A DNA stretch of 64,000 nucleotides from NCBI GenBank assembly GCA_951406725.2, contig OX597815.1, positions 13,082,001-13,146,000 of the forward strand, read 5' to 3'. Positions within the stretch are counted from its first letter, which is position 1. The number at the start of each line of letters is the position of its first letter. The notes beneath the pieces are model-generated. The model saw only the letters and a list, made by a program, of their open reading frames with translations. It made no database searches and was not told the origin of the DNA. Below are positions 17-58,473 of this stretch, in pieces. The translations under genes and the position numbers were made by a program. The stretch comes from Octopus vulgaris. Lineage: Eukaryota.

Positions 17-550
17 AGAGGCTCTCATGGCTTCTGATCTTAACTGATTGGAAGTGTTATCATTTACGTTGTTTTGTCTTGGTATAAAAGATGGGCTACA
101 GCAAATATTCTGCTCAATACCACAGATTTGCTTGTCAGTTGTTTGACCTTAACCAGTTGAGCATGTCCCTTAGTGGGTGACGATATGTGCATCTCTGATC
201 GCGAGCAGAAGTAGTGGGGGAGCATCATAGCCATGTGTTGAGAGGGATTCTTTGGGGTTTGAATGATTCACCTCTGGAAACATGGGTGGTTCTTTCAACA
301 TCCTTAAACAACCCTTATGCAGGGACCTTTTGAGCGGGATGGGCTACTCAACCTGAAGAAAATTCTAACTGGGCCCCACCTGCAAGGTCATGTGCTGTTT
401 ATCTTGATATGAGACCACCATGTCGCGCACATATGGTTGTGATGCATGTGCCAGGTGTACCCTTATCAGACGAGTAGTCATAATGTGTATACTGGGCTTC
501 GTATATTTTACCCCAGTGTCACTTTGATGACATGCTCTGCTCTCTCACTC
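17..550 (+). mobile_element. Interspersed repeat flanked by (AAT)n on both sides; probably the 3' part of a microsatellite-targeting non-LTR retroelement (Dong/R4-like)
   Basis: Complex ~530 bp block between two (AAT)n tracts. A diverged piece (attcac..gaaacatgggtg..ttcaacatccttaaac) recurs at ~13375-13420. The family assignment is inference from Dong elements targeting (TAA)n. Confidence 0.4.
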
Positions 551-10105: not shown

Positions 10106-10260
10106 AAGAAGAAAAAGAAGTAGAAGAAGAAGAAAAAGAAGAAGAAGAAGAAGAAAAAGAAGTAGAAGAAGAAGAAAAAGAAGAAGAAGGAGAAGAGGAA
10201 GAAGAAGAAGATGAAGAAGAAAAATAACAACAACATGAAGAAGGACAGCAACAACAACAA
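9950..10260. repeat. Compound trinucleotide microsatellite (AAT)n(GAT)n(AAT)n(GAA)n(CAA)n
   Basis: Read directly from the sequence. Confidence 0.95.
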
Positions 10261-10261
10261 A

Positions 10262-11090
10262 GCTGAGGGGGAAGATTTCATATTAGCTGCCCAAGACCAA
10301 AGCTTATTAACCCGGAACTACCAAGCCAATGTGATAAAAAATGGAGCTGACCCAAAATGCCGATTCTGTAACGATGAGATTGAAACAATAGACCTCCGAA
10401 TCTCAGGGTGTAGAGTCTTAGCACCTGCAGAATATAAAGCAAGACATGACAGAGTCGGCCAGTTTTTACACTGGACAATATGTCGGCATTATAAAATTAA
10501 AACCGCTGACAAATCGTATAAACGCCATCCTGAAGCTGTAACTGAGGGAGAAAATGTGTCGATTCTATGGGACTTCCCCGTACAGACCGACAAAACTCTA
10601 AAAGCTAATAAACCGGATATCATTATAAAAGATCTGACAAAAATGGTGTGTTTATTAATTGACATGAGTATTCCTTGCGACAAAATATAACGGCGAAAGA
10701 ATTTGTCGAGATCAGTTAATATAAAACTTGCTAATAGAAATTGAAAAACTGGCATCTCAAGTCGACAACAGTATCGGTGATTGTAGAATCTCTAGGAATG
10801 ATAAAAAACCTATTTGAAAATGATTCCAGGCTTACTGTTCCTACAGGAAGCGCAAAAAGTCGTGTTAACTGGAACGGCTCATGTACTGAGAAGAGCATTA
10901 TCGCTGTGAAAACAAAATCCATTCATGGATATATTTATTTAGCCATTTTGTAAAATACATATTTTACCTGTGGATTTGCGTGTGTAATCTAGGAATGCAT
11001 ACAATGAGCTTCTCTGCCCCAGTTGTACAGAAAACACTTGCCGAGAAATGGAGGATAATTTGAAGAAGGAATGAAAATATGATAATATCA
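10262..11090 (+). mobile_element. 5'-truncated R4/Dong-clade non-LTR retrotransposon (zinc knuckle plus restriction-like endonuclease) with 3' UTR
   Basis: FILAAQDQSLLTRNY..KCRFCNDEIETIDLRISGC..EYKARHDRVGQFLHW..ILWDFPVQTDKTLKANKPDIIIKD..CLLIDMSIPCD: CCHC-derived knuckle, RHD, and PD-(D/E)xK region. The 3' UTR is shared with 41330-41500. Confidence 0.9.
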
Positions 11091-36484: not shown

Positions 36485-36965
36485 CTCGTTAAACTCTTAC
36501 TCAACACATTTCATTACTGATATCATTTATATTCTGTATAAGTCGGACTCCTTTTATACGCATACACATGTAGATTTTTTTTTGTATTAATTGTATTTAA
36601 TATCTTTTGTATATCGACTTGCCTAATATGCTTATCCTTACATTTACTCCTCTAAATGCTCTAGTTCAAATCTCTTGAGCACTACGAAGTGTATTCTATA
36701 CAGAGAATGCCTATCTCTGATCTATCTATCTATGTATGTATATATATATATATATAATGATAAATATCAAAGTGAGTTATATACAGTAGCGGTAACACAT
36801 CGTGACGTATATTTGCCATTTCAATATGGCTACCCCTAAGGGTGGATGCTACTGTAGTTTTTAGCCCCAGGAGGACACACTCCTCCAGCTCGCCATAGAC
36901 ACACTTTCTGTGTCCTGTCAGTATTTGCAAAGGAAAGTCATCCTTCCCGTCTTCAACTTTTGATA

Positions 36966-37010
36966 CACACGGACTCGAGTTTCGAGGTATTGACCTCTCG
37001 TCAGCGTGTG
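36966..37010 (-). ncRNA. Type I hammerhead ribozyme (intact core)
   Basis: Exact reverse complement of 37436-37480. Confidence 0.88.
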
Positions 37011-37435
37011 ACAATCATAGTTGTCGCCGAGAATTAGATTTCCCTCACAAATACTTATACTTTTTCCAGCGTCCACTGTCGCTGATATTGAAAAAGTGAA
37101 ATCAAACAATGATAAATATCAAGGTGAGTTATATACAGTAGCGGTAACACATCGTGACGTATATTTGCCATTTCAATATGGCTACCCCTAAGGGTGGATG
37201 CTACTGTAGTTTTTAGCCCCAGGAGGACACACTCCTCCAGCTGGCCATAGACACACTTTCTGTGTCCTGTCAGTATTTGCAAAGTGAGTTACGATGTGTT
37301 ACCGCTACTGTATATAACTCACTTTGATATTTATCATTGTTTGATTTCACTTTTTCAATATCAGCGACAGTGGACGCTGGAAAAAGTATAAGTATTTGTG
37401 AGGGAAATCTAATTCTCGGCGACAACTATGATTGT

Positions 37436-37480
37436 CACACGCTGACGAGAGGTCAATACCTCGAAACTCGAGTCCGTGTG
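37436..37480 (+). ncRNA. Type I hammerhead ribozyme (intact core; predicted cleavage after GUC at 37474)
   Basis: cacacg CTGACGA gaggt caat acctc GAAA ctcgag TC cgtgtg: stem I 6 bp, stem II 5 bp, palindromic stem III ACTCGAGT. Confidence 0.9.
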
Positions 37481-37648
37481 TATCAAAAGTTGAAGACGGG
37501 AAGGATGACTTCCCTTTGCAAATACTGACAGGACACAGAAAGTGTGTCTATGGCCAGCTGGAGGAGTGTGTCCTCCTGGGGCTAAAAACTACAGTAGCAT
37601 CCACCCTTAGGGGTAGCCATATTGAAATGGCAAATATACGTCACTATA

Positions 37649-41268: not shown

Positions 41269-41327
<59 letters not shown>

Positions 41328-41329
41328 GT

Positions 41330-42555
41330 TATTTTTCCTACTATCTTCAAATTTTCTTCCATTTCTCGCCGAGTGTTTTCCGTACACCTAGGGCAGAGAA
41401 GCTCATTGTATGCATTCCCAGATTACGCACGCACATTCACAGGTAAAATATGTATTTAAAAATTAATAAATAAATAAATTCATGAATGGATGTTTTCACA
41501 GCAATAATACTATTCTCAGTACATGAGCCGTTCCAGTTAACACGACTTTTTGCACTTCCTTTAGGCATGGTAAGCCTGGTATCATTCTCAAATAGGTTTC
41601 AGTACCTTTTTTTTTTATCATTCCCAGAGACCCTACAATCAGCGGTACTGTAGTCGCCTTGAGATGCCACATTTTTTCAATTTCTATTAGCAGGTCTTTA
41701 TATTTACTAATCTTGTCAAATTCTTTCGCCGCTATATTGTGATCGCAAGGAATATTTTTATCAATTAATAAACACATCATTTTTGTCTGATCTTTTATAG
41801 TAATATCCGGTTTATTAGCTTTTATAGTTTAGTCGGTATGTACGGGCAAGTCCCAGAGAATCAACACATTAAATGGTGTTTATACCATTTGTCTGCAGTT
41901 TTGATTTTATAATGCCAGCATATTGTCAAATGTACATACTGGCCGACTCTGTTATGTCTTGTTTTATATTCTACAGGGTTTAATACTCTACACCCTGGGA
42001 TTAGGTGGTCTGTTGTTTCAATCTCAACGTTACAGAATCGGCATTTGGGGTCAGCCCAATTTTTTATCACATTGGCTTGGTAGCTCCGGGTTAATAAGCT
42101 TTGATCTTGAGCAGCTAATATGAAACCTTCACTCTCTGCTTTTAGCCCTGAGTTTCGTAACCATTGGTTGGCGCATTTCCTTCACCCTGATCAATTTGGT
42201 AGATATCTAGGAGATCAGTAGCGAAATTTTTGCTCTCTTTCAGAATTGAGTGAAGTTTTTTCGGTCTTTCATTTTTTTCAATATTTTATAGCATCAAATC
42301 GCTGGTCACTTCAAGGTATTTGGTCAGCCCGATTGTGCTGGTTTTGTACGTAATTTCAAGCTGGATGAAGCCTCGACCTCCCTGAGCTCTGCGAAGGTAA
42401 AGACGATCCACTAGGATGCTTGGAGAACTCATATGTGTTTTGGCTGATGAGTACGGGACACTTGTATTTGCTGCAATATTTGCAGCTTTTAATAAAGCTT
42501 GTCTTCGTATGAAACAATTGTACTGAAAAACTAATCCATTCTTGTTGCTTTTTTC
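41330..42555 (-). mobile_element. 5'-truncated R4/Dong-clade LINE, same family as 10262-11090, with (TAA)n tail
   Basis: Minus-strand frames KCRFCNVEIETTDHLIPGC..EYKTRHNRVGQY and CLLIDKNIPCD..KEFDKISKYKDLLIEIEKMWHLKATTVPLIVGSLG..EVQKVVLTGTAHVLR; frameshifted. Confidence 0.9.
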
Positions 42556-44292: not shown

Positions 44293-45525
44293 CATATATA
44301 CGACAGGCTTCTTTCAGTTTCCGTCTACCAAATCCACTCACAAGGCATTGGTCGGCCCGGGGCTATAGCAGAAGATACTTGCCCAAGATGCCACGCAGTG
44401 GGACTGAACCCGCAACCATGTGGTTGGTTAGCAAGCTACTTACCACACAGTCACTCCTGCGCCTATATATTACTTTATATGAAAAGAAAGAAATTAATAT
44501 AGACCATTGTATAAGATTTGAAAGGAGAACGCTTCCCGAGGATCCGATAAATAGTTATGAAGACCTACTGCAGTATGCCGCGAAAGATATTGGTGTAAAT
44601 GCAGATGAAATGATGGGCAAGTAAGTGCTTATCCAAAGAACCAAGGAGAAGAGAAAAGAAGATCTTGAAATGAGAATGCATGGACAGTCTGAAAGGAAGA
44701 CAGAAGACGTTAAGCATAATACAGCATCGTGAGCATGGCTTGAACAACCTGATTTAATGCGTCCCACCGAATGCCTGATCATTGTTGAAAAAGACCGGGC
44801 TCTCGCTACCAAGTCGGTGAAGTATAGCATTTATTAAACTTCTGACACCCAGAAATACAGCCTCTGTGGTAAGAGTGTGGAAAATGTGACCCATTTGCTA
44901 AGTGGATATGAGAGCCTTGCACAAAAAGAGTGCAATGGCCGCCATGATAACGTATATGTGTGTGTGTGTACGTTCATTGGCTGTTATGTTGTAAATACCA
45001 ATATGAAGTAACAGAGAATTGGTATGAGTATGTACCAAATAACGCTATGCAGAAGGATGGAAAAGTAACGATATGCTGCGACTATGAGTTTCAGACGGAT
45101 CGTGTAATCGAACACCGTCGGGCGGATATTTCCATTTTGAATAAGAGCGACAAATATTGTCAAATCATTGATGTAGCCATACCAAAATGACATGAATGTT
45201 GTGAGTAAGGAGATTGAAAAAAATTACCAAGTGTTGCGAATTGGAAGTGGAATTGGAAAGGCTGTATGGAATGCGAGAGGGTAATTTGAAGTGATAGCAG
45301 TGGTGAATCCCATTGAAGTGATAGTTGGGCTGAATCCCATTGAAACTTCAAAACTTCTTAAGGCAACTTAAGATTGATGTCTTGAAAAAAAAGCAGCCTT
45401 ATTTGGCACAGCGCACATTATATGGAAAGTATTATCTGTCTGAGGTTCTTGTTGTGATATGACAGAAGACTAAACATTCCGGTGCATTTTTACCTACGCT
45501 GTGTTACGAAGGAATGATGATGATG
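43590..45525 (+). mobile_element. Older R4/Dong-clade LINE fragment (RT end to RLE), interrupted by a SINE
   Basis: GYRYLGILELD..YQKRVKMVLKSILNAKTLITAMDTWVVAVVGYSA, LMTLHGALHPKANV, then YVHWLLC..WYEYVP..FQTDRVIEHRRADI..CQIIDVAIP; ends in (GAT)/(AAT) repeats. Confidence 0.85.
44021..44464 (-). mobile_element. SINE family A, full-length, nested in the LINE
   Basis: Reverse complement of 56895-57308; it splits the LINE frame between HPKANV and LYMKRKE. Confidence 0.92.
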
Positions 45526-45556
45526 ATAATATTAATAATAATAATATTAATAATAT

Positions 45557-46028
45557 CGTAACGCATATTTGCCATTTGAATATGGCTAACCCCTAAGGGT
45601 GGATGCTACTGTAGTTTGTAGCCCCAGTAGTGTTACCGCTACTGTTTATAACTCGCTTTGAGATTTATCATTGTTTGATTTCACTTTTTCAATATCAGCG
45701 TCAATCGACAGTGGAAAAAGTATATGTATTTGTGAGGGAAACTGAATTCTCGTCGACAACTATGATTGTCACACGCTGATGATAGGTAAACACCTTGAAA
45801 CTCGAGTCCGTGTGTATCATAAGTTGAAGACGGGAAGGATGACTTCCCTTCACAAATACTGATAGGGCACAGATAGTGTGTCTATAGCCAGCTGGAGGAG
45901 ATATCTTCCTGGGGCTACAAACTACAGTAGCATCAACCCTTAGGGGTTAGCCATATTCAAATGGCAAATATGCGTCACGATGTGTTACCGCTACTGTTTA
46001 TAACTCGCTCTGAGATTTATCATTGTTT
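45557..46028. mobile_element. Second copy of the 352 bp retrozyme-like element: 71 bp inverted arm plus a plus-strand unit with ~46 bp terminal redundancy
   Basis: 45557-45627 is in minus orientation; tgttaccgctactg occurs at 45631 and 45983 (period 352); embedded in (TAA)n. Confidence 0.88.
45770..45814 (+). ncRNA. Type I hammerhead ribozyme
   Basis: cacacg CTGATGA t aggt aaac acct t GAAA ctcgag TC cgtgtg; intact core, with the first pair of stem II a U-U mismatch. Confidence 0.8.
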
Positions 46029-46041
46029 AATAATAATAATA

Positions 46042-46093
<52 letters not shown>

Positions 46094-46734
46094 TAATAAT
46101 AATTAAATGACAAATTTGCCGGGTGGAGTCTGCTGTGGTGGAATTTACCGCGGCGGAATTTAACGGTCACCTATGATACATGTGTCCACTGGATTTGTAA
46201 CTACGCCCACACACATCTCAACAGGCAACGCATACTCAATGTTTGTTATCTAAGGAAATGAAAACATCTCAAAAACAATATGCTTGAAGGCTCCCTTCTT
46301 TCAGATTGTAATTTTCACACACACACACACACCTACGCCTGCAAGGCATAAAGTAAACAATACTTACTGAAAAGAACTACTGAATGGTTTCAAATGCGAT
46401 TTCTTGAAACAAGCTAAGCGGATAAACTTTAATATTTATAATATCAGTTATTGATAAACATTCGAGCACAATACAGAATTGTTCTAAACAACATCCCTTA
46501 CAATAAGATAAAACAGATCTTTGTGTAAATAGGCGAATACGTATATAGATGGATTTTATCTGCACAATTTGGCAAATTCTTAGAAAAACAAAAACTGAAA
46601 CATCAATGAAGAATCTACTATATTAGCAAGCGACTTGGAGTTAGAAAATAGTTTAAGACATACACGCCACCCACTCGCAGCATTCTCAAAAACCAGATTC
46701 CTAATTTCTCCTATATATTGAGAAACTAGCTGTG

Positions 46735-47122
46735 TGGATGGAAGAACTCCGTCGGTTACGACGACGAGGGTTCCGGTTGATCGGATCAACGGAACAGCCT
46801 GCTCGTGAAATTAACGTGTAAGTGGCTGAGCACCCCACAGACACGTGTACCCTTAACGTAGTTCGCGGGGATATTCAGCGTGACACAGAGAGTGACAAGG
46901 CCGGCCCTTTTGACATACAGGTACAACAGAAACACGAAGTAAGAGTGAGAGAAAGTTGTGGTGAAAGAGTACAGCATGGATCATCACCATCCTTGCACGA
47001 GATTCGTGGAGCTTTAGGTGTTTTCGCTCAATAAACACTCACAACGCCCTGTCTGTGAATCGAAACCGCGATCCTACGACCGCGAGTTCGCTGCCCTAAC
47101 CACTGGGCCATTGCGCCTCCAC
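46735..47122 (-). mobile_element. tRNA-derived SINE family C, full-length with 10 bp TSD
   Basis: Head gtggaggcgcaatggcccagtggttagggc..gtttcgattc; ACTAGCTGTG at 46725-46734 and 47123-47132. Confidence 0.9.
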
Positions 47123-57308: not shown

Positions 57309-58473
57309 AACAATTTCTTCCATATTACCAGAGTTGTTATTATTTGATTCTGCTATTTTACAACTTGAAATGTCATCACTTTCACCCCTGATCGCCTCTA
57401 GCTCCGATATCATTTTATTATATTTTTGTTTGAACGATTCGTTGAAATTACTTTTATAATTCCGCTGGCAGACTCAATCTTATTGAAGTGCTTACTCTTT
57501 AGCCTTTTGAACCGACTATATGCTTACAGACGTGCTTGTATATGAAATCTTATCCATGTATATATGCGTGTGTGTGTGTGTGCATGTGTGTCTATACGTG
57601 TTTGTATATGTGCGTAAGTGTATGTATACGTATATATGTGTATGTATATATATGTGTGTGTGTGTACGTATGTGTATGAAGTTTTAAATCTCTGATCGAG
57701 AAGTAAGTAGTAAGTGTACTACAGAGTAAAATCTATAAGGGGTTCTTTATATAATCTACAGTCGGGTGTGATTGAATAAGTAACTAGCTTCGCCACAAGA
57801 AAATCGAATGAGAAGTAAAGGGAAATAGTGAAGCAAAGAACGCAGTTATGCGTCGTTAGCCAGCTGGAAAGATGTTTTCCTGGGGTTAAAGAAGTGAGTG
57901 ACATCGTCCAAATAATGACTGACAACTTACGCTGGAAAGTAGAGTTTACTCTGTATTATTGTTCCTAGGTACTTCTCGCTCTAATTCTTTTTTCCGCTTT
58001 ACGACATCAGTGATGTGTGTCATTTTAAAAGTATATACCTCGAACAAGACCTAGTGATGCCATCGCTAAGGAAACAGTAATCCTGTGCTGCGAAATAACC
58101 CAGAAATCATGGCCAAAGGTACCGTATATATATACCCATCTCTTACCTCTTGAATCTTATGGCTTATATACTATTTATGAAATGATTTCATGGTTCGGAT
58201 ATTCTTGATGTCAGCTGCATTGACTTTCTACATTACATTTGTCTGTATTGGATTACTATGTGGGTGGTTACCTGAGTCCGTAAGAGGAGGTTTATGAAAT
58301 AGCTACACGATTCGTTGAATCCTCATCGTATACTACCATTTTATATACATGTGCATGCAGTATGTGCATGCATATATAAACATACAAACACAGTAAGTCT
58401 ATATATATATATATATATATGCAGTTATGGATACATAGACATACACACACATACATACATACATACACACACA

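Follow-up and report, generated by a model that had tools for sequence, protein, structure and literature searches.

The copy at 45555-46028 of the window (the whole 64,000-nt stretch of Octopus vulgaris DNA that was analysed), together with a second copy near 37291 (36757-37644), represents an element that we regard, with a probability of roughly 0.8, as a non-LTR retrozyme mobilised by a Penelope-like (PLE) enzyme. The two copies, here locus B and locus A respectively, come from different subfamilies and both have the tail and the inversion of a PLE insertion, which provides support at the level of mechanism, from the insertions themselves, for a PLE as the enzyme that moves animal retrozymes; whether these are copied from a circle or from a linear multimer is a further question in the field. 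The layout alone fits a known animal element and does not prove a circular template.

Layout and ends of the two insertions

Numbering the unit from window position 45630, locus B contains one full 352-nt unit on the plus strand (45630-45981), delimited by offset matching and arm alignment. A preliminary description of this copy had reported a terminal redundancy at exactly 352 nt, and this stands out clearly: an offset of 352 matches at 45 of 46 places, as against only 8-17 for 24 other offsets between 340 and 364. The repeat had been placed at 45631, with a length of about 46 nt; it is real (46/47 identical) but begins one base earlier, 45630-45676 recurring at 45982-46028 over 47 nt with one mismatch. 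The second of these stretches is a tail (plus strand, unit positions 1-47, by offset matching and arm alignment), and the 3' end of the long arm, which it closes, is referred to as site 2. Upstream lies a short, tail-less inverted arm (45555-45627, minus strand, unit 280-352) that is 71/73 identical to the plus unit; it measures 73 nt, or, in agreement with the 71 bp originally given, 71 without its outer AT, two bases that are equally assignable to the flank. Its 3' end against the left flank is site 1, where the long arm also begins; when both arms are placed on the unit, the inverted arm's outer end is directly next to the point at which the plus arm starts, a feature that had been overlooked. 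The two nucleotides between the arms, TA (45628-45629), read CAGTAG with their neighbors, the reverse complement of unit 10-15 (rough chance 0.03-0.11), and might possibly, as a weak sequence hint, mark a short snap-back. Read across, locus B consists of the short arm 280-352 (minus), the 2-nt insert, and the long arm from 1 to 352 to 47 (plus). As had been stated, the copy ends away from the ribozyme cut site, which is predicted to lie after 45808, internal and uninterrupted. On the left the insertion meets the (TGA)n/(TAA)n microsatellite with which a decayed LINE fragment ends on its 3' side (45514-45554, recognized from sequence and upstream frames), and on the right (TAA)n (46029-46103, recognized from sequence). 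The GC content of the 2-kb bin around locus B is 0.405.

Locus A is about 10% apart from locus B in sequence. Its long arm (36757-37284, minus strand, by arm alignment) comprises about 1.5 units, running from unit 219 to 352, again to 352, and on to 42-43, where it ends at site 2 against (TA)n. A junction of 12 nt (37280-37291) is the reverse complement of unit 20-31, with its first 5 nt common with the long arm and 7 nt inserted (rough chance 2e-5 to 3e-3), and is followed by a tail-less arm (37292-37644, plus strand, by arm alignment) that makes one lap of 352-353 nt from site 1 to site 1 (349-350 round to 349), also ending against (TA)n. BLAST within the 64-kb window returned loci A and B as the sole copies of the unit, and a repeat finder, whose output for the window was dominated by microsatellites, gave the two loci as the two longest inverted pairs. 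Pattern scans for further full copies yielded 0 matches in metagenome contigs, viral contigs and prokaryote genomes. Target-site duplications, which are optional in PLEs, were not readable within the microsatellites flanking either locus.

In both insertions (2/2) the arms stand head-to-head with their 3' ends outward, and all four outer ends fall at two sites, one per arm: site 1 (unit 349-352) and site 2 (unit 42-47). Sharing of this kind has a chance of about 0.001-0.002 at a tolerance of ±3 to ±5 nt, a figure to be read in view of n=2 loci and of a pattern noticed after looking. The tail, 43-47 nt in length, occurs on one end only in 2/2 loci, and the tailed arm is the long arm in both, yet on opposite sides. 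Site 1 is, moreover, the starting point of one arm in either locus, and the two other inner ends of the four, at unit 219 and 280, are scattered. Three arms (399, ~528 and 352-353 nt) run through the intact cut site. The targets, (TAA)n at locus B and (TA)n at locus A, are weak evidence when taken alone, such repeats being common in the window.

The preliminary description attributed this layout to reverse transcription that ran more than once around a circle or along a tandem transcript, and part of that survives, since the three arms crossing the cut site call for an uncut template of more than one unit. Rolling-circle copying with dispersed, permuted ends does not, for mapping of the ends on the unit places loci A and B at the same two outer ends. 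In such a reading reverse transcription would start and stop at random, and the 47-nt overlap would be a chance overshoot. More-than-unit arms across an intact cut site would be expected from it, and the inner ends at unit 219 and 280 (2/4) as well as the inversion joints in contigs are scattered, but such scatter is equally that of ordinary 5' truncation, and the four shared outer ends, together with a contig loose end at site 1, make it very improbable. Because both outer ends are common to the two loci and the layout is that of Penelope, the 47-nt redundancy is therefore the distance between sites 1 and 2, a Penelope 'tail', rather than a random overshoot. Both copies' local folds contain an 8-bp helix (unit 294-301 with 9-16; 45923-45930 with 45638-45645 or 45990-45997) that closes a multi-branch domain containing site 1, a candidate, in these models, for a protein-binding or start-site structure.

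Microsatellites, in which assemblies tend to be weak, surround both loci, and the junction of locus B is absent among the contig joints listed, as it might be if the pattern were produced by DNA-level duplication, fold-back or an assembly artefact after insertion of a monomer. The arms of locus B, however, differ at 2/73 and 1/47 places, so that duplication of a read does not account for them, the same end rule is obeyed by loci from different subfamilies, and run X1, which is possibly not independent of the assembly, holds 0.78 of the locus's sampled words; of all the explanations weighed here, we give this one the least credence.

The window is AT-rich, laden with microsatellites and almost without long reading frames. 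It includes three decayed LINE 3' ends with a restriction-like endonuclease motif (44800-45513, 10166-10900 and 41300-42181), which we take to be R4/Dong-like; those at 44800-45513 and 41300-42181 terminate in (TAA)n, and 10259-10528 and 41873-42142 are 88% alike in inverted orientation. A Mariner-like transposase remnant (HTH_48, E 6e-9) is found at 1354-2156, of which 1970-2156 has an 85% match at ~46936-47121. R4/Dong elements target TAA repeats, and LINEs give twin-priming inversions. Mobilization by a LINE, e.g. the R4/Dong-like element whose TAA tail holds locus B, with twin priming of the LINE type, would be in line with the left flank, the decayed 3' end of a LINE (it matches the fragment at 41876-42097 with a tblastx E of 3e-5, and that fragment has a weak zf-RVT match, E 0.0016, below cut-off). 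Yet locus A lies in (TA)n and has the same two ends, and priming by a LINE takes place at the 3' terminus of the RNA, from which one would not expect a pair of fixed internal ends and a tail on one arm or the other, so that we consider a LINE an improbable vehicle.

Hammerhead motif, predicted fold and family

Locus B carries a type I hammerhead motif with an extended stem I (45757-45825, plus strand; core 45776-45808) and is predicted to cut itself after 45808. Stem I is perfect (CACACG/CGUGUG) and open-ended. Stem II (45783-45796, plus strand, by motif inspection) consists of 4 bp, AGGU/ACCU, with the loop AAAC and a closing U·U in place of G10.1-C11.1, and the minimal stem III has 1 bp within the palindrome ACUCGAGU (45800-45807, plus strand), through which an 8-bp helix is possible between two ribozymes (duplex -10.7 kcal/mol). 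The invariant core C3, U4, G5, A6, G8, A9, G12, A13, A14, A15.1 and U16.1, as well as H17, is found in full; the core strings are CUGAUGA, GAAA and UC in locus B, with CUGACGA in locus A. Many differences from the copy at 37291, including N7 and loop II, with the core kept, had been described, and the count bears this out: 32 substitutions and 2 one-base indels, and 0/11 differences at the invariant core positions. Both closing bases of stem II also differ (U·U at 45783/45796 in locus B, G-C in locus A), which had been missed. Rfam gave no hammerhead match at the gathering score in the window, nor at E<=10 in 45500-46100, so that the assignment rests on motif and stems. In isolation, the active fold lies 3.6 (locus B) and 5.9 kcal/mol (locus A) above the free minimum.

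The G10.1-C11.1 pair of hammerheads is highly conserved but exceptions are known, and axolotl HHR_Amex2, with U·U, is weakly active (PMC7229834). A 1-bp stem III with a palindromic loop is said to require two ribozymes for cutting (PMC4209133 and PMC7229834); RNAs with a single ribozyme would therefore stay uncut, and dependence on a partner is compatible with both a circle and an uncut multimer. The string CUGANGA...GAAA occurs 11 times in the window, against 2.7 expected; three of the matches belong to the 352-nt family, and inspection by eye of five others showed no convincing hammerhead. A faint relative of unit ~234-290 was detected at 57836-57900 on the plus strand (profile E 6.5e-5; no match in the reversed-window control), within a stretch between microsatellites (~57670-58125). 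The region of the unit to which it corresponds includes that of greatest contig depth, and a degenerate hammerhead-like motif (~57919-57947) adjoins it; the fragment could belong to a distant retrozyme family or be the remnant of a PLE pseudo-LTR.

The catalytic core had been put forward as conserved, and it is identical in loci A and B; conservation beyond that of the remainder is not shown by this, as 0/11 differences have a P of ~0.32 at the given divergence. A comparison of core and other places in contigs did not reveal it either (1/11 core against 35/341 other places vary, p=1.0, from 40 rows listed of 48), and within the ribozyme only, 1/11 core and 9/22 other places vary (p 0.066). The whole predicted RNA fold is conserved, and this signal is stronger than that of the core. 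As circles, locus B is predicted to fold with -109.2 kcal/mol (z -5.5) and locus A with -115.8 (z -5.7), 0/60 shuffles of each being as stable, and when copy A was mutated at random with substitutions of matching types, 0/100 of the mutants were as stable as locus B (-90.0 +/- 6.0 vs -109.2). Differences that break pairs also fell short of the random expectation (8 where 14.1 were expected, P 0.011; 5 where 13.7 were, P 0.0001). Since the reverse complements reach almost the same stability (z -5.5 and -4.7), stable folding is no sign of a circle.

Of the 24 public runs listed, 20 contain the stretch in whole or in part, under four organism labels, and none is recorded as RNA. We aligned four runs to a repeat-free, permuted locus A monomer in which both sites are internal, obtaining 3354, 1574, 1561 and 298 contigs (4/4 runs, three organism labels): the retrozyme family is large, dispersed and present in several species. 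At least 18 of locus B's 32 substitutions, including both U of the U·U pair, recur as family variants, the two U alleles in contigs of 4/4 runs (unphased), which identifies locus B as a member of another subfamily and not merely a decayed copy. Stem II positions 155 and 166 both vary from A-U to G-C with similar contig numbers, in a table that is unphased. A core variant, U4 to C (37003, unit 148), is present in all four runs (~1%, 7%, 3% and 45% of summed depth, the 45% in X12), and other variants include C and A at 10.1 and 11.1 (unphased), which suggests subfamilies with non-standard hammerheads. Unit 107 (37044) is G in both window copies and A in 77-98% of contig depth in the four runs, despite the 10% divergence; alignment bias or a species difference may account for this.

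Among the 24 loose-end rows listed of 381, a single one is at once long, rich in AT and heterogeneous (agreement 0.53): it lies in run X1 at 37154, which is unit 349, and comprises 7 contigs with a median of 122 nt. None of these 24 rows is at site 2. Three opposite-strand joints were recovered (unit 34/281, 338/239 and 273/219), 0/3 of which have an end at site 1, and the end at 281 adjoins the inner end of locus B at 280. The contigs back site 1 as an outer end and do not confirm it as a favored inner end. Loose ends at 37184, 37230-37232 and 37284 were set aside as indel or edge effects and that at 37126 as subfamily variants, and a joint that 'goes back 350' (4/4 runs) was rejected as evidence of tandem arrays, as any copy crosses the arbitrary cut point of the monomer.

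Mobilizing enzyme and template

In the reading we prefer, RNA with more than one uncut unit would be bound by an endonuclease-bearing PLE protein acting in trans, which would nick both strands of an AT-rich microsatellite. Each nick would prime cDNA at one fixed internal site, site 1 (349-352) or site 2 (42-47), and the two cDNAs would grow toward each other, to be joined head-to-head via microhomology and a short snap-back insert. One arm would thus gain a tail of 43-47 nt and the other none, and the 352-nt redundancy would amount to a single unit together with the tail. End-joining repair typically leaves snap-back inserts that are joined by microhomology, and twin priming is known from LINE-1 work. 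Two full insertions were readable, and no RT or GIY-YIG family that could mark a PLE partner was seen among 148 of the 162 candidate frames of the window.

Both loci agree closely with what is published on PLEs. According to PMC11167929, a PLE protein, when purified, cleaves AT-rich DNA and extends either strand of it; PLE cDNA starts at two internal RNA sites without target homology, the spacing of which equals the genomic tail; uncleaved RNA is the dominant substrate in vitro; and the anole PLE requires sequence 3' of the start sites. Genomic PLE insertions have an inverted 5'-truncated copy, a tail of 30-40 bp on one end, junction palindromes and microsatellite targets (PMC8557442 and PMC3846280, each as far as available). 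One departure from the PLE model is the tail, which at 43-47 nt slightly exceeds the quoted 30-40 bp.

Type I hammerheads occur in PLE pseudo-LTRs, and inverted ends are left behind where PLEs are truncated (PMC4209133 and 10.64898/2026.07.22.740005); on these grounds the unit might be the pseudo-LTR stump of an autonomous PLE and not an independent retrozyme. What lies upstream of the unit, however, is another unit (the long arm of locus A; the period of locus B) and not the end of an ORF, and the reading frames of the 352-nt unit have no coding match to any protein family, so that we hold such a stump to be improbable.

With three arms crossing the intact cut site, the template would be a circle or an uncut multimer; by simple arithmetic, a monomer cut at 179/180 would give at most ~220 nt from site 2. 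The mapping of ends proposed in the preliminary description cannot separate the two, since fixed 3' ends set by the start of the enzyme still allow a circle. Granted the PLE model, we lean towards a linear, uncut multimer. Locus B would be explained most simply by twin priming on one such RNA, the long cDNA having halted one unit further up, at the very site 1 from which the short cDNA set out; on a circle, the long cDNA would have to pass site 1 once, displace 47 nt of itself and stop there the second time. Both inner ends would likewise follow if transcription began at site 1. The two tail copies of locus B differ at unit 29, where the family elsewhere has either state (T in copy A; C in the X6 and X12 loose ends), a weak hint of non-identical template units, as a C/T change can recur.

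Under the same model, a ligated monomer circle, lapped by the PLE enzyme from fixed starts, is possible and is compatible with our best explanation. The tail-less arm of locus A is exactly one lap (352-353 nt), as if the enzyme had stopped at its own start, and the repeated stretches within locus A differ at 3 places only, as a template of a single sequence would give. Simple twin priming on a single linear RNA also accounts less well for locus A, whose arms would then overlap by ~45 nt or need more than 3 units. A circle would supply the sequence 3' of the start sites that the anole PLE requires (PMC11167929, available parts), and related animal retrozymes accumulate as circles, whose copying into tandem cDNA is a proposed model (PMC7229834, available parts). 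The unit is predicted to fold stably in circular form (z -5.5 and -5.7), a stability that its reverse complement nearly shares and that is not specific to a circle. A mixed or unclear topology we consider unlikely.

That the ligated 352-nt circle was a real transposition intermediate, and that the copies record laps of a PLE enzyme from two fixed sites, is a somewhat doubtful proposition, under which the tail-less arm of locus A would be one lap and the long arm of locus B one lap plus the tail. If true, thousands of copies would be direct genomic evidence of a circular RNA reverse-transcribed by a PLE enzyme, a process only proposed in the literature consulted so far (PMC7229834, available parts). 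With a whole assembly at hand, so large a family, with its two fixed start sites, would lend itself to distinguishing circle from multimer.

Comparison with known retrozymes and Penelope-like elements

The element shows several traits of a non-LTR retrozyme: a non-coding unit between 150 and 450 nt, a type I hammerhead and a GC content below 50%. Head-to-tail repetition appears as a period of 352 in both loci, with arms in the window that hold a single ribozyme and no more than 1.5 units each, and short contigs beyond it; 'active' retrozymes have been defined by two consecutive complete ribozymes (preprint 10.64898/2026.07.22.740005, available parts). Animal non-LTR retrozymes, in the available parts of PMC7229834, have a non-coding unit of ~350 nt (350-390 in mussel, 330/350 in axolotl), comparable to the 352 nt of locus B, and share with it low GC, a type I hammerhead, a stable predicted circular fold and, as far as the 352-nt period goes, head-to-tail repetition. 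The resemblance extends to the ribozyme, as axolotl HHR_Amex1 has a 1-bp stem III with a palindromic tetraloop and HHR_Amex2 a U·U at the base of stem II, and locus B has both. Unlike the retrozymes described there, loci A and B have 1.1-1.5 units in their longer arms, stand head-to-head and have fixed ends, and they are known here from DNA alone; the word 'inverted' has 0 occurrences in the main text of that paper.

PLEs have been named a strong candidate for moving animal retrozymes (PMC7229834, available parts), and a 2026 preprint by Li, Clavereau and Pollet (10.64898/2026.07.22.740005) argues for a PLE origin, mainly in vertebrates, from co-occurrence and pseudo-LTR homology. With the element class and its link to PLEs already published, the present gain is incremental. 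Insertion ends are not analysed in the available main text of the preprint, and the end geometry of loci A and B constitutes separate mechanistic support. Our search, which lacked most subscription journals, found no paper that uses insertion ends as evidence for a PLE origin of retrozymes, and none on a retrozyme with twin priming or rolling-circle reverse transcription; the available text of PMC8490949 has nothing on end geometry, and the main text of the octopus repeat paper makes no mention of ribozymes or retrozymes. Another parallel is with the algal Chlamys elements such as MRC1, themselves non-autonomous partners of PLEs, with pseudo-LTRs and multicopy insertions in head-to-tail order, as the present element would be; their clade is described as without canonical hammerheads (PMC8557442).

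The closest parallel in the insertions themselves is with endonuclease-bearing PLEs (PMC11167929, PMC8557442 and PMC3846280, each in its available parts), with which loci A and B share an inverted 5'-truncated copy, a one-sided tail, two fixed 3' ends, an AT-rich or microsatellite target, a junction palindrome, a hammerhead and partial tandems. They differ from PLEs in having no ORF, a whole repeating unit of 352 nt, a tail of 43-47 and not 30-40, and one arm per locus whose start coincides with the end that has no tail. In its insertions the element resembles a PLE and in its appearance a non-LTR retrozyme; as it has no ORF, it is not an autonomous PLE.
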